A stretch of 64,000 nucleotides of DNA from Bacteroidales bacterium (GTDB taxonomy: Bacteria; Bacteroidota; Bacteroidia; Bacteroidales; JAGONC01). How positions within the stretch are numbered: position 1 is the first letter of the stretch; each line of letters begins with the position of its first letter. The DNA lies in NCBI GenBank assembly GCA_035342335.1, contig DAOQWY010000008.1, forward strand, positions 21,722-85,721, written 5' to 3'. Positions 10,461 to 23,254 of this stretch are shown in pieces. The notes beneath the pieces are model-generated. The model ran no database searches. It worked only from the letters and a program-made list of their open reading frames with translations, and was not told where the DNA came from. The translations under genes and the position numbers were made by a program.

Positions 10461-12194
10461 TCATATAATGAGTTCCAATCCGTTATCCATAAGGGCACGG
10501 AACTCTTCATTTTTTATTTTGAATTGTTTCATGTGGTCATAGATATCTTCGGAAAGCTCCTGCAAAATTGGTTCTTTATGGCCTAGTTCATAAATCTCCA
10601 GGCAAAGCAGCCATTCGACTTCATTTAAATTCTTCATTTCATGCCAGACTCCCGGTAGCATCTCTAAACCTTCTCCTGATTCCCGGATATCCCTTACCTT
10701 CTGATAAAGGGCATGTACCTTCCTTGCTTCATCCGTGTGGATGATCTTGTGTGTTTTTTCAGTCGGTACGGGATAACGCAGTCCAAATGCATCCGGATCG
10801 GCTGGTCCTGAGAATGCCGATGTTATTTTCTCTCCGACTGCCATGTCGTAGCTGCCCCAGGCGGGATCAAATAAAACCTGGTCAAGATAGGTAACTTTGC
10901 ATTCTGTAAACGAGAACAGAATGTTATTACCATTCTTTTGCGTAATACCCTCCAGTTTTCCCTTAACGCGCACCCCTGACGTAAAATCCAGTGAGCAATG
11001 TTGGCCGGTGATGATCCCTAACCGCATCAGGTCATCTACCTGCATTACTTCAAGTGGCATGGAGGAAGCTTTTATTTTCCCGACCGGTGATCCAAATCCA
11101 TGGTTGTGATATTCTTTGCCGTGTCCCTCAAGTTGTTTGTTGTCGAACGCAAGAGCCGTGGGACCTGTGGTTTTGAAATATACCGGATCTGCTTGTTCCA
11201 CGATGACCTCGGTAAAGGTACCTGAGACCTGAAGGCCTGAACTGCAGACACAGGTGGCTGTATTGCCTGAGTTTATGGCCTGCCGGAGGCCGTACAATCC
11301 TCCTTTGCGGAGGGCCATCCCTTCGGCAAACTGATTCAGCACAAAGGTCAGGTGATCAAAATCGGGTGTGACAAACAGCTGAGGCTGCATGGTGGTAATG
11401 TCGAAATTGACATCTGCGGTTTCAACCGAGTAAGGTATCTTTCTGACGTGGTCTTGCAGGCAATTCTGGCTTTCACCGATAGAGGAAAGAAGTCCGGCAC
11501 CATAAATCCTTGGATTTTTAAGGTCACCCACCAGGCCGTATTCCACCGTCCACCAGTGAAGGTTGCGGATCCTGGCCATTTCGCTGGGTGTACCCAGGTT
11601 TTGTTCGATGTAAGTCAGTTCCCGTTCCGCCCTTTCAATCTCATCGGCGGGAGTGTAGGGGTCTGCTTTCAGGATGGAAAGGTGTCTGACCGCCCCATAA
11701 AGTTCATAATCCCTGGCCGAGGAGAATGCTTTGCTGCCGATCTCTCCGAATAAACGCAGGTATTCTGCATAATGGTCGTCCGCAATGATGGGTGCATGGC
11801 CTGCTGCTTCGTGGATGATATCCGGTGATGGAGTATAGTTGATCTGGTCGATGGGGCGGATATCGGCGGCTATCACCAGTACCTTGCAGGCCTGGAATTC
11901 CATAAAGGCAGAAGGGGGGATGAATCCGTCCACTGCCACGGCAGCCCAGCCGATCTCCTTCAGGATGCGGTTCATGCCGTACATGTGGGGGATTTGCTCA
12001 ATGCTGATTCCGGTTCTTCGCAGCCCATCAAGATAGGAGCCATGGGCTACACGGCTGAGGTAACGGACATTCCGGCGCATCACGTAACGCCAGACTGCGT
12101 GATCCTGAGCCGTATAGTCATTATAGGGTTGTTCGATCACCAGATCCAACAGGTGTCGGGGCAGCCGGTCGAGGATTTCATTGGATTCGTACAT
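10461..12194 (-). CDS. phhA: Aromatic amino acid hydroxylase (phenylalanine 4-monooxygenase, long form)
   Basis: YTPSPDIIHEAAGHAP iron ligands, WWTVEYGL, IYGAGLLSSIGE, DITTMQPQLFV. Start MYESNE at 12194. Confidence 0.9.
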   Translation of the reverse strand: MYESNEILDRLPRHLLDLVIEQPYNDYTAQDHAVWRYVMRRNVRYLSRVAHGSYLDGLRRTGISIEQIPHMYGMNRILKEIGWAAVAVDGFIPPSAFMEFQACKVLVIAADIRPIDQINYTPSPDIIHEAAGHAPIIADDHYAEYLRLFGEIGSKAFSSARDYELYGAVRHLSILKADPYTPADEIERAERELTYIEQNLGTPSEMARIRNLHWWTVEYGLVGDLKNPRIYGAGLLSSIGESQNCLQDHVRKIPYSVETADVNFDITTMQPQLFVTPDFDHLTFVLNQFAEGMALRKGGLYGLRQAINSGNTATCVCSSGLQVSGTFTEVIVEQADPVYFKTTGPTALAFDNKQLEGHGKEYHNHGFGSPVGKIKASSMPLEVMQVDDLMRLGIITGQHCSLDFTSGVRVKGKLEGITQKNGNNILFSFTECKVTYLDQVLFDPAWGSYDMAVGEKITSAFSGPADPDAFGLRYPVPTEKTHKIIHTDEARKVHALYQKVRDIRESGEGLEMLPGVWHEMKNLNEVEWLLCLEIYELGHKEPILQELSEDIYDHMKQFKIKNEEFRALMDNGLELII

Positions 12195-12327
12195 GGGGTA
12201 AAAGGTTACATGTTGCAAGTAAACCCGCAACCTGTATCCCGTAACAATAAACATAATAACTGTGGTTTTGTTCAGGTGAGCAGCATTTTCCCTTTCTCCA
12301 TGATCCTCAGATAGAACGATTGTTTCG

Positions 12328-12685
12328 TTATCGAACACTCCAGCGCGAATATTCCTCTCTATCAGACGGGGATGCATTGAGTTTTGCTGCCAGGATTTCA
12401 AGAAGAACAGGCCCTGACTCCTTCATCATTTCAACTTTCAGCCACGCTAATTTTTCTGCCTCCCTGAGATCCTTATGATAACCTGCCAGCTTTGTTGTCC
12501 GCTTCTTATGATGCAAAGAGTTTATATTCAACACGATACCTCCCCCCAATCGTAGTGTCGATGGATGAATTACGGATGATGTAGTGATCCTGGTTCATCA
12601 GAATGGCTGGTCTGTCAAGATGAATCTGTATCAGCGCTGCCCTGTCCGCGTGGCCGGCTGTCCCCAGGATCAGGTGACGGCTCAT
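12328..12685 (-). pseudogene. selB: Selenocysteine-specific elongation factor SelB relic (internal deletion plus frameshift)
   Basis: ATG at 12685 overlaps the selA stop. It reads MSRHLILGTAGH (start of the SelB G1 motif GTAGHxDHGKT), joined directly to ALIQIHLDRPAILMNQDHYIIRNSSIDTTIGG (domain III-like). A frameshift in a G6 run at 12542-12547 leads into GGGIVLNINSLHHKKR. Confidence 0.82.
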
Positions 12686-14097
12686 GGATAGAGGGAATGA
12701 TAGACCGGATTGATGATTTTTGCAACCAGGGCGATTTCGTGGTCAGGGATGGTCAGTACGTTGAAAAAGACGCGCCCCTGACGAAGGATGGCCAGAATGG
12801 GCAGGTCCTGAAGCAAAAGCCGGCGGTAAAATTGTTCAGCAAACTGGGTTCGTTCCCTGTTTGTTTTGTATGGACCCGTGATCCGAACGGCATAACCGGG
12901 AATTTCAGCATCCGGGAGCGATCCTCCTCCTGTCGAGGCCATATCGGGCATGACACTGGATTCGATGCTAAATTCAAGAAGAGCTTTCTGCAGTGAAATG
13001 GCTTTGTCGCGGAGCTGTTCGGGTGTTTCCCGCAACATCCGGAAAACAGGATTCGTCATCATCAGTTGGTCTTCATCGGGATAGTGCAGGCAGGTCGCTT
13101 CAAGGAAGGCAAGTGTGGTTTTCCCCACCCGCAAAGCCCTGGTCAGCGGATCCTTTTTCAGCCGGGCAATGAGCTCTTTCTTGCCGGCAATGATCCCTGC
13201 CTGCGGACCTCCAAGTAACTTATCACAGCTGAAACTGACCAGATCGGCTCCTTCTGCAAGGGTCTGCCGTACATCGGGCTCATCTTTTAAAAGTTGAACG
13301 CCGGTCTTGCGCAGCAACCCTGAACCCATATCGTAAACCACCGTTACGGAATATTTCTTCCCCAGTTCAACCAGTTCTCTCAACGATGGCTGGTCGGTGA
13401 ATCCCCTGATCACATAGTTGGATCGGTGTGCCTTCATCAGCAAAGCAGTTCTGGGTGTGATCGCCTGCTCATAATCTTCCAGCCGGGTCTTGTTCGTGGT
13501 CCCCACTTCGATCAGGCGGCAATCCGATGTTTTCATGATATCCGGCAACCGGAACGACCCACCGATCTCGATCAGCTCACCCCGGGAGACGATGACTTCT
13601 TTTTTCCGGGCCAGGGTGCGCAGGATCAGTAACACTGCCGCAGCATTATTGTTGACCACCAGAATATCCTCAGCACCGGTCAGATATCGTAAAATTCCTG
13701 TCACGTGGACATACCTGGAGCCCCGCTTCGCTTCAGCCAGGTCGAATTCGAGATTGCAATAACCGGTCAGGACATCTCTTACCTCATCCAGGATCTGTTC
13801 ACCGACAGGCGCCCGCCCGATGTTGGTGTGAATGATCACCCCGGTGGCATTGATCACCCGGCGAAGACTGTGCTGACTGACCTCATCCAGGGACTTAATA
13901 ATCATTTTATGAATTTCCTCCTGGGATGGAGCAGGCGAACCATTCCTGATCTGATCCCTGAAATGATCCAGGGTAGCGTGAATGGCATACAGGACCATTT
14001 CCCTTGAATGGATCTGAAGCAGGTTCTTTATTTCGTCGGAAGTGAGCAGGGTGCCCACGCCGGGAAGCTGTCTGAATGATCCCTCCACAGGGTTCAT
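12682..14097 (-). CDS. selA: L-seryl-tRNA(Sec) selenium transferase
   Basis: RRVINATGVIIHTNIGRAP, VNNNAAAVLL, SRGELIEIGGSFRLPD, EVGTTNKT, FSCDKLLGGPQAG with the PLP lysine. Start MNPVEG at 14097, downstream of the tRNA. Confidence 0.96.
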   Translation of the reverse strand: MNPVEGSFRQLPGVGTLLTSDEIKNLLQIHSREMVLYAIHATLDHFRDQIRNGSPAPSQEEIHKMIIKSLDEVSQHSLRRVINATGVIIHTNIGRAPVGEQILDEVRDVLTGYCNLEFDLAEAKRGSRYVHVTGILRYLTGAEDILVVNNNAAAVLLILRTLARKKEVIVSRGELIEIGGSFRLPDIMKTSDCRLIEVGTTNKTRLEDYEQAITPRTALLMKAHRSNYVIRGFTDQPSLRELVELGKKYSVTVVYDMGSGLLRKTGVQLLKDEPDVRQTLAEGADLVSFSCDKLLGGPQAGIIAGKKELIARLKKDPLTRALRVGKTTLAFLEATCLHYPDEDQLMMTNPVFRMLRETPEQLRDKAISLQKALLEFSIESSVMPDMASTGGGSLPDAEIPGYAVRITGPYKTNRERTQFAEQFYRRLLLQDLPILAILRQGRVFFNVLTIPDHEIALVAKIINPVYHSLYP

Positions 14098-14132
14098 GTT
14101 ACCATTCTTTGCGGGCACAGGTGGTCGTTTTG

Positions 14133-14224
14133 CAGAGAGGGCAGGGATCGAACCTGCCACAGCCGGTTTTATCCGCCTGTCATTGGTTTTGAAGACCAAC
14201 TGGAACACCAGTCCCGACCTCTCT
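14133..14224 (-). tRNA. selC: tRNA-Sec (anticodon UCA)
   Basis: Acceptor AGAGAGG/CCTCTCT with discriminator G; D arm GGGAC-TGGT-GTTCC; anticodon arm GTTGGT-CTTCAAA-ACCAAT; long variable arm ACAG.CGG-ATAAAA-CCG.CTGT; T arm GCAGG-TTCGATC-CCTGC. Directly upstream of selA. Confidence 0.93.
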
Positions 14225-14256
14225 AGTGATTTTGAACGGCCATGCCCTATTAATTA

Positions 14257-14264
14257 CAAATGTA
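14257..14264 (-). promoter_or_regulatory. Bacteroidota primary-sigma -7 element upstream of selC
   Basis: TACATTTG on the minus strand matches TAnnTTTG and lies about 33 bp before the tRNA 5' end. Confidence 0.55.
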
Positions 14265-14323
14265 CACAAAGAAATTCAAGTTTAATTGTCCGGGATTTTC
14301 TTTACCGGCTTATGACAGAGCAA

Positions 14324-15346
14324 TCACATTCTCTGCGCAGCAAAGTCCTTCGAGTAGTAATTCATAAAATATTCTGCTTTTTCCACCATATGAGCCGAAC
14401 CGACGAACAGTGGGCTTCGCTCGTGGATTTTTTCAGGCTTGATATCCAGGATTCGCCGGAATCCGTCGGACGCTTTTCCGCCTGCCTGCTCGGCCAGGAA
14501 GGCGATGGGAATGCATTCATATAACAGGCGAAGTTTTCCCTGTCGGTTTTTCTTGGTTCCGGGGTATAGATAGATCCCTCCGCGAATCAGGTTGCGGTGG
14601 AAGTCGGCGACCAGGGAGCCTATGTACCGTGTAGTGTAAGGTCTGTTCGATTCAGGATGGTCTTCCTGGCAATAGCGGAGGTACTCTTTGACTCCTTCCG
14701 GGAAATAGATATAATTCGCCTCATTGATGGAATAAATATTTCCCCCTTCAGGGATGCGCATGGTTTCCTCTGAAAGGATGAACAATCCAACCGTGGGATC
14801 ATAGGTGAATGCGTGAACCCCAATGCCGGTGGAGTATACCAGCATCGTTGATGAACCATAAATAACATACCCAGCGGCAATCAGGTCAGTGCCGGGTTGT
14901 AGAAAATCTTCTGTCGTACCTGGATTTCCAGCGGGTGAAATCCGGCGCCAAATGGAAAAGATGGTGCCAATGGAAACATTTACATCGATATTGGAGGAAC
15001 CATCCAGGGGATCCATGGCCACCACATACTTTCCTTTCCGGGAAAGCTCGGTGTCGAAGGTGATCAGCTCTTCATTTTCCTCGGATACAATAGCACAGCA
15101 CTGTCCCCCGCTGCGCAGCGCCCTCGTGAAATGCTTATTGGCAAATACATCCAGCTTCTTCTGCTCTTCCCCCTGCACATTGGTACTGCCCTCCAGTCCA
15201 AGTATATTGGCAAGCCCGGCACGGTTGATATCACGGTTGACAATTTTCGCTGCGATCCCGATATCATTGAGCAACCGCGATAGGTCACCTGTCGCTCCGG
15301 GAAAAGACTCCTGCTTTTCGTTGATGAACTCGATCAATGTTTTCAT
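14324..15346 (-). CDS. fbp: Class 1 fructose-1,6-bisphosphatase
   Basis: [44 protein letters not shown]. Confidence 0.96.
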
Positions 15347-15395
15347 TGAGGACTGACTTTTCAATCAATTTTCTGCCTTTTTCCGCGTATGAACA

Positions 15396-15605
15396 TTATT
15401 TTTTCTTTGCACAGAACGTATTGCACTTGAAAACCGTGTAGAGGGGGCAATGACCAATGATACCTGTCACGAAGAAGATGATGGCAATGATCAGGAAGAC
15501 GATCCCCCATCCTCCCGTGATCACTTTGGTGAAGAAAAGAATTGCGAAAATGGCCGCGATCACGATTCTGATGATCCTGTCGGCCCATCCCATGTTTTTT
15601 TTCAT
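15396..15605 (-). CDS. DUF2892 (YgaP-like) small membrane protein
   Basis: MKKNMGWADRIIR...TGIIGHCPLY with two hydrophobic helices. Confidence 0.85.
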   Translation of the reverse strand: MKKNMGWADRIIRIVIAAIFAILFFTKVITGGWGIVFLIIAIIFFVTGIIGHCPLYTVFKCNTFCAKKK

Positions 15606-15742
15606 AGTAGTAGGTTTTAAATGACTGTAAACGATTGAACGAAGATATGAAATTATTTTTACAAGCACGATCCGGTTTACTCCTTAAAGGGAAACAATGA
15701 GTTTGGAATTTTAATGATTATCATTCGTTCATACCTCTAAAG

Positions 15743-17068
15743 TCAACAATAGAGGTTGATCATCCGTTCGAACAGTTCCTGCTTGCCACTGATCTGGCGG
15801 GGTTCTCCCTGGCTGCGTGCTATTTCCCGCAAATCCTCCAGTGTGAGGCGTCCGTCTTCAAACTCTTTCCCTTTGCCCGAATCAAAGGAAGCATACCGCT
15901 CCTGCCGGAGTTTCAAATAATCCGATTCTTTCAGGATCCTGTCGGCAAGGATGAGCGCTCTGGCAAAGGTATCCATGGCCGTGATATGGGCAACGAAGAT
16001 ATCTTCCAGGTCGGTGGAGTTGCGGCGCATCTTGGCGTCGAAATTGATACCCCCCGGTGCAAGGCCACCTGCCTGGAGTATGACCAGCATCGCTTCAACG
16101 GTTTCGTAGAGATTTACCGTAAACTGGTCGGTATCCCACCCGTTCTGGTTGTCGCCGCGGTTGGCGTCGATGCTGCCCAGAAGGCCTGCATCAGCTGCCA
16201 TCTGCAACTCGTGTTCAAAGGTATGGCCAGCCAGGGTGGCATGGTTCACCTCGATGTTCAGCTTGAAGTCCTTATCCAAACCATGATGCCGCAGGAAGCC
16301 GATAACCGTTTCCGCATCAAAATCATACTGGTGCTTGGTGGGTTCCATCGGTTTGGGCTCGATTAGGAAGGTACCTTTGAATCCTTTGCTGCGGGCATAG
16401 TCCCGTGCCATGGTGAGGAAACGGGCGAGGTGCTCTTTTTCCCGTTTTGTGTTCGTGTTGAGCAGGGATAGATATCCTTCGCGTCCTCCCCAGAATACGT
16501 AATTTTCCCCTCCAAGGGCGATGGTGGCATCCAGCGCATTCTTAACCTGGGAGCCTGCGTGGGCGACGGCCAAAAAGTCGGGATTGGTTGCTGCACCGTT
16601 CATGTAGCGCGGATTCCCGAAAACGTTTGCCGTTCCCCACAGCAGCCTGACACCCGAAACGCGCTGCTTTTCCCGTGCATATTCCACCATTTGTCCCAGC
16701 CGTTCTTCATTCTCAGCCACGGTCCCATCTCCTGTAAGGTCCGTATCATGAAAGCACCAGAACGGGATCCCTGCTTTGGTCATGAACTCAAAAGCGGCAT
16801 CCATCCGGTCGCGGTTGCGCTGCATCAGGGAAGGAGCAGCCTCCCAGGGAAATACTTTCGTGCCCTGACCGAATGGATCGTTGCCGGTGTTGCATAGGGT
16901 ATGCCAGTACGCCATTGAAAAACGAAGATGCTCCTTCAGGGTTTTACCGGCCACTGCCTGATTTTCGTCGTACCAGTGGAATGCCATGGGATTTTTTGAT
17001 GCAACTCCCTCGAAAATGATCTTTTTAATTCCGGGAAAATATTCTTTGTGCCCAGTCATTATATTCAT
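15743..17068 (-). CDS. xylA: Xylose isomerase
   Basis: [47 protein letters not shown]. Confidence 0.97.
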
Positions 17069-17101
17069 AATTATTTGATCTATATATATTAATTTTATGT
17101 A

Positions 17102-18589
17102 TTATACCGTGATCAGATCAGGAGGTAAATGATTTTTCCAGTTATTGTAGGCCTGTTCAAGGGTATCTTTCTTTCTGGATGGAGTGATTTGGAACAACCT
17201 GTTCATTTTTCTGAAAACAACCTCTGTATTTTCAACAAATCCTGCTCCGACCGCGGCTCCCATGGCAGCACCCAATGCCCCGTCGGTGTCGAAAAGATGG
17301 ACCGGGATGCCCGAAACATCAGCAAGTGCCTGCCTGAAAACGCTACTCAGAAACATATTGGCAAATCCTGCCCTGATCGCGGATGGTCGTAGCCCCAATT
17401 CTCCCATGACCTCCAGGCCATAGTTCAGGGCGAATGCAATCCCTTCCTGTGACGCCCTGAAAAGATGTGCGGGCGTATGAAGGTTGAAGTTGATCCCGTG
17501 GATACTGCAACCGATATCGTGGTTTTGAAGTACCCGTTCGGCTCCATTCCCAAAGGGAAAGACCAGCAAGCCGTCGGAACCTTCAGGGATCAGCGCAGCC
17601 CGGGCGTTCATGGCCTCATAGTCCAATCCGGATGCGATGTTTTTTTTGATCCACGAATTGAGTATCCCGGTTCCGTTGATGCACAGCAGGACGCCCAGTC
17701 TTGGCCTATCTGGCCGGTGGTTGACGTGGGCGAATGTGTTGATCCGTGAAAGCGGATCGGAGATCAGCCGGTCGGTCACAGCGTACACAACCCCGGATGT
17801 GCCAGCCGTTGCAGCGACTTCACCCGGTTGGAGGACATTCAGCGAAAAGGCATTGTTCGGCTGGTCACCGGCACGGTAGGTCACCGGAATGCCGGGCTTC
17901 AGACCAAGGTTCCGGGCAAGGACAGGCAGCAGGTTACCCTGCTGGCCAAAGGTGGGTGCGACGGAGGGGAGCAGTTCCCTTTGAATTCCCGTTTTTTTGA
18001 GAAGCTCGTCAGAGATGCTTTCCTTTTTAAAATCCCAGAAGATTCCTTCTGACAATCCTGGGACGGTCGTATTCATCAGGCCGGTCAGCTTAAAGGCAAG
18101 GTAATCGCCCGGCAACATGATGCGGTGAATTCTGCGGAAAAGGTCAGGTTCATTCACCATCACCCAAAGGAGCTTCGAAGCCGTGAAATTTCCAGGTGAA
18201 TTGAGAAGATGCATTCTGCAATACTCATTTCCAAGCTGTTCAGCGATCCGGTTGCCGGTATCCACCGCCCGGCTGTCGCACCAGATGATGGAAGGTCTCA
18301 GCGGTGCGCCTGCTTCGTCCAGACAAACAAGCCCGTGCATCTGATAGGTGATGCCGATGGCTCTGATCCCTTTGGCTTCGTTCCCTGCCTGCAGAATGAC
18401 GTGACGGATGGCTGCTTTGGCATGCTCCAACCAGGATTCAGGGGATTGTTCTGCCCACCCTTTCTGTGGAGCAATGATCGGCATCTCCTGATCAGGTGTC
18501 TGTGACCTGGCAAGGCACACACCCGATTCAACATCGTAAATGGCTGCCTTGATGAACGAACTTCCAATATCAAGTCCCAGTGTTTTCAT
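17102..18589 (-). CDS. xylB: Xylulokinase (FGGY kinase)
   Basis: LGLDIGSS, YQMHGLV, IIWCDSRA, RAGDQPNNA; adjacent to xylA. Confidence 0.92.
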   Translation of the reverse strand: MKTLGLDIGSSFIKAAIYDVESGVCLARSQTPDQEMPIIAPQKGWAEQSPESWLEHAKAAIRHVILQAGNEAKGIRAIGITYQMHGLVCLDEAGAPLRPSIIWCDSRAVDTGNRIAEQLGNEYCRMHLLNSPGNFTASKLLWVMVNEPDLFRRIHRIMLPGDYLAFKLTGLMNTTVPGLSEGIFWDFKKESISDELLKKTGIQRELLPSVAPTFGQQGNLLPVLARNLGLKPGIPVTYRAGDQPNNAFSLNVLQPGEVAATAGTSGVVYAVTDRLISDPLSRINTFAHVNHRPDRPRLGVLLCINGTGILNSWIKKNIASGLDYEAMNARAALIPEGSDGLLVFPFGNGAERVLQNHDIGCSIHGINFNLHTPAHLFRASQEGIAFALNYGLEVMGELGLRPSAIRAGFANMFLSSVFRQALADVSGIPVHLFDTDGALGAAMGAAVGAGFVENTEVVFRKMNRLFQITPSRKKDTLEQAYNNWKNHLPPDLITV

Positions 18590-18590
18590 T

Positions 18591-18926
18591 TCAGTCCCAT
18601 ACGTACTTCCACGTTCCGTCGTATTGCCGTTATCAGATCGTCATATATACCCCTTTATATTCACTGATTCTTCCTGTCGAATCCTTTATCTGCCAGAGGT
18701 ATTTTCCGTAGCTGTATCCCAGATCCCCAGTTGCCGATACCTCAATGAAGTCGGGCTCCCAGTCAACGATTGCCTGCCGGTAAACTGGATGGTCATAAAA
18801 TTGATGTTCGGTTTGGCGAATCTCTTCCTTGTAATTTCCGGTGGAATTCATTTCAGTCTTTTGATTACAGGAAACCATTACCAATAGGAGGAAAACCAAT
18901 GATAACAGTTGAATGAGGTTTTTCAT
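18591..18926 (-). pseudogene. DUF4440/SnoaL-like (NTF2) lipoprotein pseudogene
   Basis: Lipoprotein signal, GDLGYSYGKY, GVYMTI, then TGA TAA, then the in-frame family tail RQYDGTWKYVWD-stop. The N-terminal half of the domain also looks internally shortened. Confidence 0.75.
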
Positions 18927-18938
18927 GAATTTTTTATT

Positions 18939-19187
18939 TCATAACCACTTATTCACTTCATCTTTATTGAAATATTCCGGATCGAACTCATCCCCCAGCC
19001 ACTCGAGATTGCTTTCATATTCCTCATGATCAGGCTGTTTAAGAATCTCCAGCATTTCTGCATAACCCCATACGCCTCCGCAGTCTTCCGGAGGACATTT
19101 CATTTCACCCACAACCGCCTCCAGACCTTTGGCTTGGAGCCCCTTAAGGCAATCTGAATCTGATAAATAGTTGTTGTCATGTTTCAA
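18939..19187 (-). pseudogene. pRiA4b ORF-3 family C-terminal fragment
   Basis: GEMKCPPEDCGGVWGY...EWLGDEFDPEYFN motif; only 82 aa, N-terminal part absent. Confidence 0.7.
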
Positions 19188-19283
19188 AAGATAGGATTAA
19201 GGTTTTACCGGGGAGTTGACTTGATGACCCAACTGAACTTTTTCTCTTACACGGTAAAGTTACATTTATTTTTGTAATTTAGT

Positions 19284-21896
19284 TTGTTTGAATCTTACGA
19301 CGCCGTGGAGTACAATCAAGCGATCAAATCAGGCAAAGAACCCAAAAAACAGAATGCCCTCGAGATCCTGGTTACGATCGCATTGTTTTTGGTTTTTCTT
19401 CTGGTTATTGCCACCGGGGTGCTTTCGTACATCCGACTTGACCAGATCATCCAAACCGTGAATTCCGCCATCAGACCCGACCAGCAGCTGATCCTGGTCA
19501 AGGAGATTTACAACGACCTGTCTGAAGCAGAAAACAGCGTTAAATCGTATTCCCTCACACGGAATAAAGAAGAATTGGACCGGTTTTATAACCTCGTGAA
19601 TACTACCGGAGAACGTTTTGATGAGCTCAAGCAGATGTGTGGCCGTGACGATCCCTCGTCTTCTCTGGTCATCACCCTGGACAGTCTGGTGGAAGAAAAA
19701 TTCATGGTTCTTGACCGGTTGCTTGCCATCCAGGATGAATTCAGGGTTCAGCAGGCCATGAACCAAGTGATGGACCGGATCCAAAAAGAAAAGATGCCGG
19801 AACTCCCTCCCGTTTCGGATACGGTCGTGGTGAGTGATACCACGAAAAAGGGCAGTTTTTTCTCGCGTATCTTTCGGCGAAAACAGTTGAAGGATCAGAT
19901 CCAGCCGGATACGGTCCTCATCACGACGACCCAACCCCCTGAAGTTTCCTTTGAAGAGATCAGTGAGCAGGTGAAGGTTGTCCGGCAGGAGGCTCTGGTC
20001 AGGGAAAAAAAGCTCCGGCAGGAGGAGTGGAACCTTATGCAACAGGACAGGGATGTCATGGACCGGATCCGTCAGGTCCTTGCACAAATGGAAACCGCTG
20101 AAAAGGACAGACTGGCGGAACGGACTGCGGATACCGAAAAAAAGGCCGGTGAGGTCAAGCAGATCATTTTTGCTTTCGGGATTTCGGCTTCCTTGTTGCT
20201 TCTGATGGCAGGCCTGGTGATCTTTCGCTATGTCAGGAAGAACAACCTGTACCAGAAGGCACTCCAAAGGGCCAGGGATGAAGCAGAAGATTTGTCGCGG
20301 ACAAAGGAACGATTTTATGCCAATATGAGCCACGAGATCCGGACGCCCATGAACATTATTTCAGGTTTTGTTGGTCAGCTCCTGAAAAGCAGGCTGGAAA
20401 AGGATCAGCACGAGCAGCTTGTGATGGTGAAAAAGTCATCCGACCATCTGCTGGGCGTCCTGAACGATCTGCTTGACCTGTCGAAGCTTCAGGCAGGTAA
20501 GCTTGGGCTGGTGCAGGAACCCTTCAGCATCCGCGAGGTCATTGATGACATGAAACGGTGGTTTGAGCCGGTTGCCATTGAAAAAAACATACAGCTGAAT
20601 GCCTGGGTCGGGCCTGGCGTTCCTCAGCTGGTGACCGGTGATCCGGTTCGGCTGCGGCAGATCCTGTTCAACCTGACCGGAAATGCATTCAAGTTCACTG
20701 AAAAAGGCGAGGTTTCCATTAAAGCCTTTCCAAGGGAGATCACCGATGATAAAGTGCTTGTCGTTTTTGAAGTGAACGATACAGGCATTGGCATCAATCC
20801 CGGGGATATCAAAAAGATTTTTGATGAGTTTGAGCAGGGGAGTGGGCAAAAAAGGCAGAATTCGGGAGGGACCGGTCTGGGGCTGGCGATCACACGGAAA
20901 CTGATCGAGTTACACGGGGGCAGCCTGAAAGTCGAAAGTGAGCCCGGGACAGGATCCAGCTTCAGCGCCAGCATTCCTTACAGGAAAGCAAAAGGAGAGG
21001 TGATTAACAAGGAAACAGTGGATACTGAGGGCAGAGAGCACCTTAACGATCTCAAGGTCCTGGTGGTGGACGATGAAGAATACAATTTAAAGTTGCTGAA
21101 GGTCATCCTGGAGCGGTATGGATGCAAAACGATGGAAGCCAGGAGCGGCGAGGATGCACTGCAGCGGGTTGAACAGCAGGCTGTTGACCTCATTTTGATG
21201 GATCTGCACCTCCCCGGGATGAGCGGTGACAAAACAGCCCTTGAGATCCATAGCCTGACAGCAAAGAAGGGTACCGCCATCCCCATCATCCTTATAAGCG
21301 CAGCAGTCACTTCCGACAGCAGGGATGCATATAGGCAGATGGGGATTGAGGACTGCATTCCCAAACCCTTCGAGGAGGATCAGCTGATCCGGTCCATTCA
21401 AAAGGCCATCTCGCGCCATCCGAAACCGAAGATCACGGAAGCTGCTCCCGAAATAATGCAAGTCCTGCAGGATGCACCTGTCCATAAGGAACGACCGGCT
21501 CAAGACATCGTGAAGGAGGAGCTACCGGTTCGTGGCCTTACCAAAGATGGGCAGCCGGTTTATGACCTTGCCTCCTTACGGGAGACAAGTGCGGGAGACC
21601 AGGTTTTCTTCAGGGAGATGGTGCAGCTTTTCATTTCGGATACGGACCGGGGTCTGGAAGAGATCACGGATTGCCTGGCACGGCAGGAGTGGACACAAGC
21701 TGCCGAAATTATACATAAGATCAGTGCTCCCTGCCGCCATCTCAAAGCGGAAAACCTATACCGTTTGTTAAAAGAGGCGGAAGCGCTCCTGAATGAGCCG
21801 GATAAGTACTGGATGTCGGCTGAAGTGATCCTTCAGGCTGTTGAGGAGTTTGAACTGATCAGGGCTGACCTTGGCGCACCGGATGAATTAAAATGA
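19284..21896 (+). CDS. Hybrid sensor histidine kinase (periplasmic sensor, HisKA, HATPase, REC, HPt)
   Basis: Two TM segments; ANMSHEIRTPM; GDPVRLRQILFNL; DTGIG; GTGLGL; VVDDEE...ILMDLHLP...PKP; HPt IHKIS. Confidence 0.93.
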   Translation: MFESYDAVEYNQAIKSGKEPKKQNALEILVTIALFLVFLLVIATGVLSYIRLDQIIQTVNSAIRPDQQLILVKEIYNDLSEAENSVKSYSLTRNKEELDRFYNLVNTTGERFDELKQMCGRDDPSSSLVITLDSLVEEKFMVLDRLLAIQDEFRVQQAMNQVMDRIQKEKMPELPPVSDTVVVSDTTKKGSFFSRIFRRKQLKDQIQPDTVLITTTQPPEVSFEEISEQVKVVRQEALVREKKLRQEEWNLMQQDRDVMDRIRQVLAQMETAEKDRLAERTADTEKKAGEVKQIIFAFGISASLLLLMAGLVIFRYVRKNNLYQKALQRARDEAEDLSRTKERFYANMSHEIRTPMNIISGFVGQLLKSRLEKDQHEQLVMVKKSSDHLLGVLNDLLDLSKLQAGKLGLVQEPFSIREVIDDMKRWFEPVAIEKNIQLNAWVGPGVPQLVTGDPVRLRQILFNLTGNAFKFTEKGEVSIKAFPREITDDKVLVVFEVNDTGIGINPGDIKKIFDEFEQGSGQKRQNSGGTGLGLAITRKLIELHGGSLKVESEPGTGSSFSASIPYRKAKGEVINKETVDTEGREHLNDLKVLVVDDEEYNLKLLKVILERYGCKTMEARSGEDALQRVEQQAVDLILMDLHLPGMSGDKTALEIHSLTAKKGTAIPIILISAAVTSDSRDAYRQMGIEDCIPKPFEEDQLIRSIQKAISRHPKPKITEAAPEIMQVLQDAPVHKERPAQDIVKEELPVRGLTKDGQPVYDLASLRETSAGDQVFFREMVQLFISDTDRGLEEITDCLARQEWTQAAEIIHKISAPCRHLKAENLYRLLKEAEALLNEPDKYWMSAEVILQAVEEFELIRADLGAPDELK

Positions 21897-23254
21897 GTAA
21901 CGAAAAGACCATGCAGGACGAACAGGTTACAATCTTTGTCGTTGAAGATAACGAATGGTATAACCGGTTACTGGTTCACCATCTGGACATCGATCCCGGG
22001 TATGTGGTTAAAAGTTTTCTCAATGGCAAGGAGTTGCTCGCCCATTTGCACGAACGGCCCGATATCATCACGCTGGATTACCGGTTACCTGACACAAAAG
22101 GGTCTGACCTGTTGAGACAAATCAGGGAGTTTGATGACGGGATCGAAGTGATCATTGTTTCTGAACAGGAAGATGTCCAAACTGCCGTTGATCTGCTTCA
22201 CGAGGGAGCGTTTGATTATCTGGTGAAAAACGAAGAGATTAGGCAGCGGTTGCACAATGCCATCCATAAGATTGAAAAAAGTGCCCGATTAAAGAAGCGG
22301 ATCAGCGTGCTGGAGCAGGAAGTGATCACCAAATATGATTTTGAGAAGGTGGTTGTGGGGAACAGTCCTGCCATGAAGAAGGTGTTACAGCTGATGGGAA
22401 AAGCAGTGGCAAACAACATTACCGTTACCGTTACCGGAGAAACCGGAACCGGAAAAGAAGTGATTGCCAAGGCCATCCATTTTCATTCACCACGAAGGGA
22501 CAAACCATTTGTTGCGGTCAATATGAGTGCCGTACCTTCAGAACTATTTGAGAGTGAATTCTTTGGATTCGAAAAAGGATCGTTCACCGGTGCTACAGTT
22601 CGCCGCATCGGTAAACTGGAAGAGGCACACGGCGGTACCTTATTCCTGGATGAAATTGCCGACACCGATATCAATTTCCAGCCCAAGCTTCTCAGGGCTC
22701 TGCAGGAACGAGAGATCAGCAGGATCGGAAGCAATGAGATCATCAAATTCGATTGTCGCATCATTGTTGCCAGCAACCGCAATCTCCAGAACGAGGTCAA
22801 AAACGGAACATTGCGGCGGGATCTCTATTACCGGTTGTTTGGATTACAAATCGACCTGCCTCCCCTGCGCGAAAGGCAGAACGATGTGCTGATCCTGGCC
22901 CGTCATTTTATGGATGCATATTGCCAGGAGAACCACCTTTCGGGTAAACTCCTGTCGGAGGAGGCGAAAAACCGGATTTTGAGCTACCCCTGGCCGGGTA
23001 ACGTAAGGGAACTGAAATCGGTGATCGAGCTGGCCATCGTCATGAGCTCAGGCGATACATTGACTGCTTCGGACATCATGCTCAGCCACTCGGATCTGAT
23101 GGCGGATATCCTGTCGGATGAAATGACACTTAAAGAATACGAAAAGACCATATTGAAATTCTATCTGAGTAAATATTCTGACAATATCAAACTCGTCGCA
23201 AAAAAACTTGGGATAGGCCAGGCCACCGTTTACCGCATGCTCAAGGAAATGTAA
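21893..23254 (+). CDS. Sigma-54-dependent response regulator (NtrC family)
   Basis: REC domain, GETGTGKE, GSFTGA loop, LFLDEI, WPGNVREL, C-terminal HTH; start overlaps the kinase stop. Confidence 0.95.
   Translation: MSNEKTMQDEQVTIFVVEDNEWYNRLLVHHLDIDPGYVVKSFLNGKELLAHLHERPDIITLDYRLPDTKGSDLLRQIREFDDGIEVIIVSEQEDVQTAVDLLHEGAFDYLVKNEEIRQRLHNAIHKIEKSARLKKRISVLEQEVITKYDFEKVVVGNSPAMKKVLQLMGKAVANNITVTVTGETGTGKEVIAKAIHFHSPRRDKPFVAVNMSAVPSELFESEFFGFEKGSFTGATVRRIGKLEEAHGGTLFLDEIADTDINFQPKLLRALQEREISRIGSNEIIKFDCRIIVASNRNLQNEVKNGTLRRDLYYRLFGLQIDLPPLRERQNDVLILARHFMDAYCQENHLSGKLLSEEAKNRILSYPWPGNVRELKSVIELAIVMSSGDTLTASDIMLSHSDLMADILSDEMTLKEYEKTILKFYLSKYSDNIKLVAKKLGIGQATVYRMLKEM

Follow-up and report, generated by a model that had tools for sequence, protein, structure and literature searches.

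The displacement of a native gene by a xenologue is a general concept. For selB, we found no report of such a displacement in a literature search that lay mostly outside subscription journals. What has been published is the joint transfer of selA, selB and selC with fdhA, in Pseudomonadales and others (Zhang et al., 2006; PMC1794560). According to the accessible text of that paper, FdhA containing selenocysteine (Sec) is often the only selenoprotein and is thought to maintain the trait, transfer of the trait is said to need selA, selB and selC in one cluster, and the trait had not been found in Bacteroidetes in 2006. A second selB is described, in the accessible text of Mukai et al. (2017; PMC5389517), from Syntrophobacterales and Desulfobacterales, where SelB* lies beside selC*, a tRNA-Cys.

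Here, we analyzed a window, the whole 64,000-nucleotide stretch of DNA under study, from a Bacteroidales genome (G000; a 53-contig assembly of 3.41 Mb with an estimated completeness of 100% and contamination of 0.23%), and compared it with three congeners (G001, G002, and G003) and with relatives from two other genera (G004, G005, and G007). Sequencing runs containing the window stretch came from activated sludge, digesters, and wastewater, and there was no RNA run among those listed. The window carries a genuine selB pseudogene. We consider it likely that an imported selB, which arrived with a Sec formate dehydrogenase, has displaced it, and we predict that Sec decoding persists.

The native operon and its selB relic

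On the minus strand of the window, a promoter-like octamer was followed by tRNA-Sec, selA, and the selB relic, and then, from ~12197, by an aromatic amino acid hydroxylase gene (Table 1). The tRNA-Sec scored 59.8 bits against RF01852 (gathering score 47), and its cloverleaf folded with a z of -3.15. Genome searches with ARAGORN and RF01852 showed it to be the sole tRNA-Sec of G000, the remaining RF01852 matches coinciding with ordinary tRNA genes, and in nucleotide alignments it was identical to the tRNA-Sec of all three congeners at every base. The single-copy selA scored 541 bits against TIGR00474 (cut-off 268) over model positions 1-453 of 455, with no stops. The tRNA(UCA) and the full-length selA reported in an earlier note on this DNA were therefore both borne out. 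The promoter motif of that note fared less clearly: the octamer is present, and G001 and G003 have TACTTTTG and TACCTTTG of the same pattern at the equivalent position, but a sigma-70 scan at 14264-14257 returned nothing, and the octamer is a candidate by its match to TAnnTTTG, the Bacteroidota -7 promoter consensus.

SelA was 69-72% identical to its counterparts in the three congeners and 47-58% identical to eight other matches, and the nearest labelled selA loci (L282-L285) belonged to Bacteroidales or Bacteroidetes genomes. Its amino-acid divergence ratio, 1.25, falls within the range of six control genes (1.01-2.65), and three of four strain differences are synonymous, the fourth leading to a residue present in the congeners; selA therefore looks to be under constraint.

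In all three congeners, an intact selB directly follows selA. The relic at this place in G000 totals 414 nt (12685-12272, minus strand), compared with ~1,950 nt for the full gene. Alignment to the SelB of G001-G003 revealed two deletions, of ~906 and ~634 nt, and a one-base insertion, the remaining pieces mapping to congener residues 1-14, 318-349, 351-379, 400-429, and 643-668. The earlier note had described an ORF that overlaps the selA stop, starts MSRHLILGTAGH, and jumps to domain III; this ORF (12685-12506) was recovered, and its SelB similarity was confirmed by the alignment; it also matched the SelB beta-barrel model of Pfam at 26.9 bits, marginally below the cut-off of 27 (E 6e-6). The loss of most of the G domain and of domain II was also verified, the in-frame deletion of ~906 nt having removed residues 15-317, as was the frameshift in the G6 run, which has one extra base relative to all three congeners. 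The gap between residues 379 and 400 in piece 3 corresponds to a variable insertion of the congeners. The previous description of a gene fading out without its winged helices held for residues ~430-642, which were removed by the out-of-frame loss of ~634 nt, but the last 26 SelB residues and a TGA stop (12274-12272) follow, ending 56 nt beyond the coordinate given in the earlier note. The relic can encode neither a GTPase nor a complete winged-helix region.

The nucleotide alignments gave no assignable microhomology where the deletions are joined. The amino-acid divergence of the relic is twice that among the congeners on the same columns, but this ratio, 1.99, still lies inside the control-gene range, so that the frame breaks, and not the rate, prove decay. 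Polymorphism in the relic (4 sites in 414 nt) did not differ significantly from that in selA (4 in 1419 nt; p 0.08). Behind selB, the congeners carry genes for an amino-acid-permease-family transporter, a sensor kinase, and a response regulator (~4.3 kb, opposite strand; L068:2255-6385); this block is absent in G000 (window 12197-12272), where the hydroxylase gene lies 75 nt behind the relic.

Authenticity was examined with contigs, not raw reads, from four runs of four studies, and all matched the relic without indels or joints. Contigs X1 and X3 are a possible source of the assembly; X4, which covers the whole stretch, and X6, which covers the whole relic, come from two studies and are not flagged as such. 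Both carry the same deletions and frameshift, together with strain-level substitutions and no indel or joint, so that the relic is common to different strains and is not the assembly artifact that the earlier note had named as a possible objection.

Table 1. Coordinates of the features discussed. Positions without a locus or genome label refer to the window.
Feature	Position	Strand	Basis or remark
Promoter-like octamer TACATTTG, upstream of selC	14257..14264	-	Sequence; candidate by pattern
selC, tRNA-Sec, UCA anticodon, intact	14132..14224	-	ARAGORN; Rfam RF01852
selA, selenocysteine synthase, 471 aa, intact, native	12682..14097	-	TIGR00474
Relic piece 1, residues 1-14; start codon overlaps selA stop	12644..12685	-	13/14 residues identical to G002 SelB
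Relic piece 2, residues 318-349 (domain III)	12545..12640	-	25/32 identical to G002; Pfam PF25461 match
G6 run, one-base insertion (frameshift)	12542..12547	-	Extra base in nucleotide alignments with all three congeners
Relic piece 3, G002 residues 351-379 and 400-429	12361..12540	-	19/29 and 21/30 identical to G002
Relic piece 4, last 26 SelB residues and TGA stop	12272..12355	-	20/26 identical to G002 643-668, E 4e-11
CxCxxU gene	L069:9736-11541	-	In-frame UGA; usually just upstream of selC
CxCxxU gene	L070:9801-11597	-	In-frame UGA
CxCxxU gene	L179		In-frame UGA
Two selB loci of G211	L233, L234		One beside CxCxxU gene, other beside Sec fdh
Two selB loci of G122	L241, L255		One beside CxCxxU gene, other beside Sec fdh
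Two selB loci of G389	L236, L256		One beside CxCxxU gene, other beside Sec fdh

An intact selB and a predicted Sec formate dehydrogenase gene on a second contig

A genome search of G000 returned a single selB above cut-off, an intact gene of 660 aa on contig C30 (G000:C30:12035-14017), whose product scored 322.6 bits against TIGR00475 over model positions 1-579 and contains the G motifs GHIDHGKT, DVPGH, and TKAD. It immediately precedes fdhA, a gene of 906 codons with a single in-frame UGA at C30:15337 (context HCARL-U-HSSTV), 356 codons preceding and 549 following it. When read through the UGA, the product reached 812.6 bits against TIGR01591 (cut-off 666), and FdhA is predicted to contain selenocysteine. 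No FdhA orthologue was found in the three congeners (best identity 29-30%).

The UGA is followed by a hairpin with a 6-bp stem and a 7-nt loop that starts GG, 17 nt after the UGA. Its predicted energy of -7.2 kcal/mol is marginal relative to the bSECIS consensus (loop of 3-9 nt, G within the first two loop positions, spacing of 16-37 nt, energy <= -7.5 kcal/mol), and a different hairpin is the preferred fold of the 48-nt stretch (z -0.21). The 15-nt hairpin top (GTT GCG GGA CTG GCA) is identical in all nine Sec-type genes of the FdhA clade, different in two more distant Sec-type genes, and variable in the eight Cys-type genes listed, in a comparison of 30 loci of which 11 had no match to the search pattern.

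The genome search placed one selD of G000 above cut-off. It lies on contig C3 (L009:319-2532), encodes a 737-aa Cys-type fusion of NifS and SelD that scored 398 bits against TIGR00476, and is adjacent to a likely selenouridine synthase gene, which shares 74% identity with that of G002. Both things that the earlier note had proposed to look for, a selD and a UGA-containing gene with a SECIS-like hairpin, are thus present in the genome, the hairpin being conserved. Matches to selD in frames of similar length also occur in G001, G002, G005, and G007. In G005 the match is single, as in G000, yet the operon is complete and the CxCxxU client described below is retained; one SelD can therefore suffice. 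The three congeners additionally carry yedF with a stand-alone selD (GGCSAK motif; e.g., L140:7954-9627 in G002), a pair not found in G000, where the equivalent site is C4:49238-49709.

Further selenoproteins were also sought. FdhA was the sole selenoprotein recognized in a codon-model scan of 54,664 TGA codons, judged by eye on the best 90 of 197 plus a motif list, and again in a hairpin-filtered scan, among 202 of 815 candidates; small or novel selenoproteins can escape both scans. The families NF049945, PF00578, and NF049943 had no in-frame stop in G000, G001, G002, G003, and G107. In an all-against-all search of the loci for conserved TGA codons, only FdhA and the CxCxxU family were credible among the matches listed, many of which were off-frame. 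Elsewhere, the selB of G049 (L072:5963-7773) is divided between two frames, of 451 and 152 aa, and a nearby formate dehydrogenase gene contains an in-frame UGA, whereas G381 (92% complete, 420 contigs) has an FdhA gene with an in-frame UGA (G381:C76, L208) and no selB match at E 1e-90.

The selB-fdhA pair lies in an island of ~11 kb (C30 ~11320-22700) between hoxW and a pyrD-like gene, with the gene order rubrerythrin-like, selB, fdhA, fdhB, MFS, mobA, and porin; the genes downstream of fdhA encode a NuoE/NuoF-like subunit, an MFS transporter, a MobA-like protein, and a porin-like protein. The placement rests on one contig, which has native genes at both sides. In all five relatives spanning the site (G001, G003, G004, G005, and G007), hoxW and the pyrD-like gene are adjacent without the island; the contig of G002 stops short of the site and was left out of the comparison. 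From this absence in five of five relatives we infer, by parsimony, that the island was acquired.

The ancestry of its selB points the same way. The relic is 70-73% identical to congener SelB over 132 columns and 41% identical to the island SelB. In a 40-row SelB tree, relic and congeners formed one group (bootstrap 100), and four f101-family genomes formed another with the island SelB (100); a rooted 16-row tree agreed, the bootstraps for island SelB with f101 in the two trees being 100 and 98. An AU test on the 16 rows rejected a single clade of island SelB and congeners (p 9.5e-6). The nearest FdhA sequences are likewise from f101 (88% and 85% identity). Thus, the C30 selB is of different ancestry from the relic and was probably imported on the 11-kb island. 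No close donor was found, the best SelB identity being 64% and the island DNA matching at best at 60-70%, and codon use and G+C of the island are host-like; the import is therefore undated, and the order of events is one that we infer. In G225 and G321, the two f101 genomes in which both loci were inspected, selB accompanies selA and is separate from the fdh cluster, and the exact gene order of the island is therefore without precedent among the genomes seen. No remnants of a donor selA, yedF, or selD were seen in the island.

Client genes and the fate of the native selB

Upstream of selC in G001, G004, and G005 lies a gene for a protein of ~600 aa with CARDB-like and type IX sorting domains, which is the likely native client of the operon. 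It contains an in-frame UGA in the motif GCYC-L/Y-S-U and is referred to as CxCxxU. A search of 401 genomes of the order yielded 20 strong matches in 15 genomes, each with exactly one TGA, and three weak matches without TGA; all 15 genomes fall among the 47 of 401 that have selB. With selB in 47 of 401 genomes of the order, the Sec trait is uncommon, as the earlier note had said of Bacteroidota, but not rare.

The CxCxxU genes share a hairpin of 10 bp after the UGA, in which 90.6% of cells pair and four pairs change on both sides; two of 500 shuffles scored as high, and slid controls were 18-45% paired. The first base of its 7-nt loop, 23 nt downstream of the UGA, is an A, which distinguishes it from the loop of fdhA. 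CxCxxU is thus a candidate selenoprotein family. It was found neither in Table 1 of a review (PMC13188914) nor by word in the accessible text of that review, nor by word in the main texts of BSepDB and deep-Sep, and NCBIfam returned nothing beyond the sorting domain. A protein-database search returned no longer relatives of the domain; this search is weak because gene callers would split the gene at the UGA.

The gene was not found in G000 or G002, and fragments of it were found in G003. A covariance model of the hairpin, applied to 150 candidates per genome, picked out the CxCxxU gene alone in G001 and G005; G000, G002, and G003 yielded no match. G002 and G003 (L066, L067) have an intact selC-selA-selB, but neither an intact CxCxxU gene nor a Sec FdhA, and no selenoprotein client was found in them, which may reflect either further clients or an earlier stage of decay. 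In G007 (97% complete; L254, G007:C16), no selA, selB, or selC was found, and a CxCxxU fragment of 122 codons remains. One family displays what looks like a series of states: the full system (G001, G004, and G005), a broken client (G003), a client not found (G002), a swapped SelB (G000), and machinery not found (G007).

In G000, the native selB is inactivated at its ancestral place, and the replacement is of another lineage and lies in an acquired segment. Apart from the window SelB, the components of the Sec trait are there: selC, intact SelA, intact SelB on C30, SelD, and the UGA-bearing fdhA. On our reading, displacement of the native selB, the native SelA and tRNA-Sec would yield Sec-tRNA from selenophosphate supplied by the NifS-SelD fusion, and the imported SelB would deliver this Sec-tRNA to the UGA of fdhA; this decoding would in turn keep selA and selC under selection. 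Two steps are less secure. Loss of the CxCxxU client likely made the native SelB dispensable, although this loss does not by itself explain decay, since G002 and G003 keep a native selB without the client; and arrival of the island may have preceded the break of the native selB.

The reverse order, with the native selB inactivated before the import, a short lapse of the trait, and a revival of the intact selA and selC by the island selB, would lead to the same end state, and G003 and G002 show machinery persisting without a found client. We nevertheless consider this order improbable: the relic has two large deletions, a frameshift, and extra substitutions, whereas selA and selC show no disabling change; the tRNA-Sec has remained identical to that of the congeners; and host-like codon use of the island fits an older arrival.

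Very improbable, in our view, is a loss of the trait in progress, with Sec decoding disappearing and selB going first. This was the leading inference of the earlier note, and it is refuted by that note's own criterion, an intact selB elsewhere, and contradicted by the presence of intact selA, selC, and selD and of fdhA with its UGA and conserved hairpin, as well as by a rate of change in selA not in excess of the control genes. The destruction of the native selB would fit it, as would the failure to find the native client and the yedF-selD pair of the congeners, and G007 illustrates that full loss does occur in the family. Of the other options offered in that note, a second selB elsewhere proved to be the right one, and no SelB-independent function of SelA and tRNA-Sec needs to be invoked.

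An ancient paralogy, with both selB genes and the fdh block ancestral in the family and the block lost in the relatives, is slightly less credible still. It would agree with the host-like codon use and G+C of the island and with the finding of both SelB types in three genomes of other families, but it requires an identical 11-kb loss, leaving hoxW beside the pyrD-like gene, in two congeners and in three genomes of two other genera. Moreover, the island SelB and FdhA are nearest to a single other family, f101, and the flanking hox genes are 79-92% identical to those of the congeners, whereas, in the congener loci that were compared, orthologues were lacking for six of the seven island genes, and island and congener SelB share ~45% identity. 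That the assembler created the deletions, conceivable for a 53-contig assembly found in metagenome runs and compared by contigs, has a negligible chance given the agreement of four runs from four studies, two of them differing by substitutions and unflagged as source.

Dedicated SelB-SECIS pairs and comparison with known systems

Sixteen genomes with an intact CxCxxU gene were available, and three of them (G122, G211, and G389, from three families) also have a Sec formate dehydrogenase. All three have two selB loci (Table 1), compared with none of the other 13, which have one selB; the Fisher p of 0.002 is inflated by the physical linkage of selB and fdh. In each of the three, selA and tRNA-Sec are present once. 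In G211, selB is accompanied by selC but not selA in the fdh cluster, and by selA but not selC in the native one; the other duplicates are gone, and both selB genes have been kept. The second selB of G389, next to fdhA, is interrupted by a contig end, which leaves two complete two-selB cases. These three genomes hint that each SelB may serve its own SECIS class; co-regulation with fdh or incomplete purging would also explain the same selB counts.

An N-E-K signature in the last winged helix was present in 19 of 19 native-type SelB rows and in none of 29 others; the 19 rows belong to one clade, and by itself the pattern carries no co-evolution signal. In many of the 47 genomes with selB, neither of the two clients was found. 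We propose tentatively, as something somewhat short of probable, that Bacteroidales contain several SelB-SECIS pairs that read each other poorly, that an imported selenoprotein would bring and keep its own SelB, and that SelA and tRNA-Sec would be shared. SelB of the N-E-K clade would then read the long CxCxxU hairpin and the other clades the fdh hairpins, and the window would represent a next step, in which the client was lost, its cognate SelB deleted, and the trait carried by the imported pair. According to section 5 of PMC13188914, some SECIS elements depart from the consensus, which points to distinct classes. The obstacles to expressing heterologous selenoproteins have been attributed to the SelB-ribosome interaction and not to SECIS recognition, in the accessible text of a review citing Tormay and Bock (1997) (PMC8659212). 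No report of two SelB proteins serving two SECIS classes was found in our literature search, to which subscription journals were mostly closed.

A pseudogene with a spare copy is by itself of modest interest. If our reading is correct, however, the Sec machinery would be swappable part by part, contrary to the argument that transfer requires selA, selB, and selC together, and a broken selB in an operon would be no evidence of trait loss. Natural SelB and SECIS pairs from one order, and even from single genomes, would offer a test for more than one bacterial SECIS code, a question that bears on selenoprotein mRNAs outside one consensus and on orthogonal Sec-insertion systems.

As in other xenologous displacements, the native selB decays at its ancestral site and a homologue of another lineage is found elsewhere; unlike in those, selB is part of a recoding system with an RNA signal in the client mRNA, and the client would have changed together with the factor. 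With the co-transfer described by Zhang et al. (2006), as far as its accessible text goes, this locus shares the association of Sec machinery with a Sec-containing FdhA. In contrast to that case, G000 already had the trait and its island holds selB only, so that the working set would consist of native selA and selC and an imported selB. The SelB*/selC* arrangement, in the accessible account of Mukai et al. (2017), resembles G000 in that a genome whose Sec system is complete holds a further selB. SelB*, however, pairs with a second special tRNA, whereas no tRNA gene was called on contig C30, G000 has one tRNA-Sec-like gene, and its second selB pairs with a selenoprotein gene. Finally, the set predicted here has the four components of the Escherichia coli system, SelA, SelB, SelC, and SelD, with the UGA of FdhA at the catalytic position, and as with the fdhF SECIS (consensus in PMC13188914, section 5), the fdhA hairpin loop begins with G, 17 nt after the UGA. 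It differs from the E. coli system in that its components lie in three places and would be of two origins, and in that its SelD is a Cys-type NifS fusion beside a selenouridine synthase gene.
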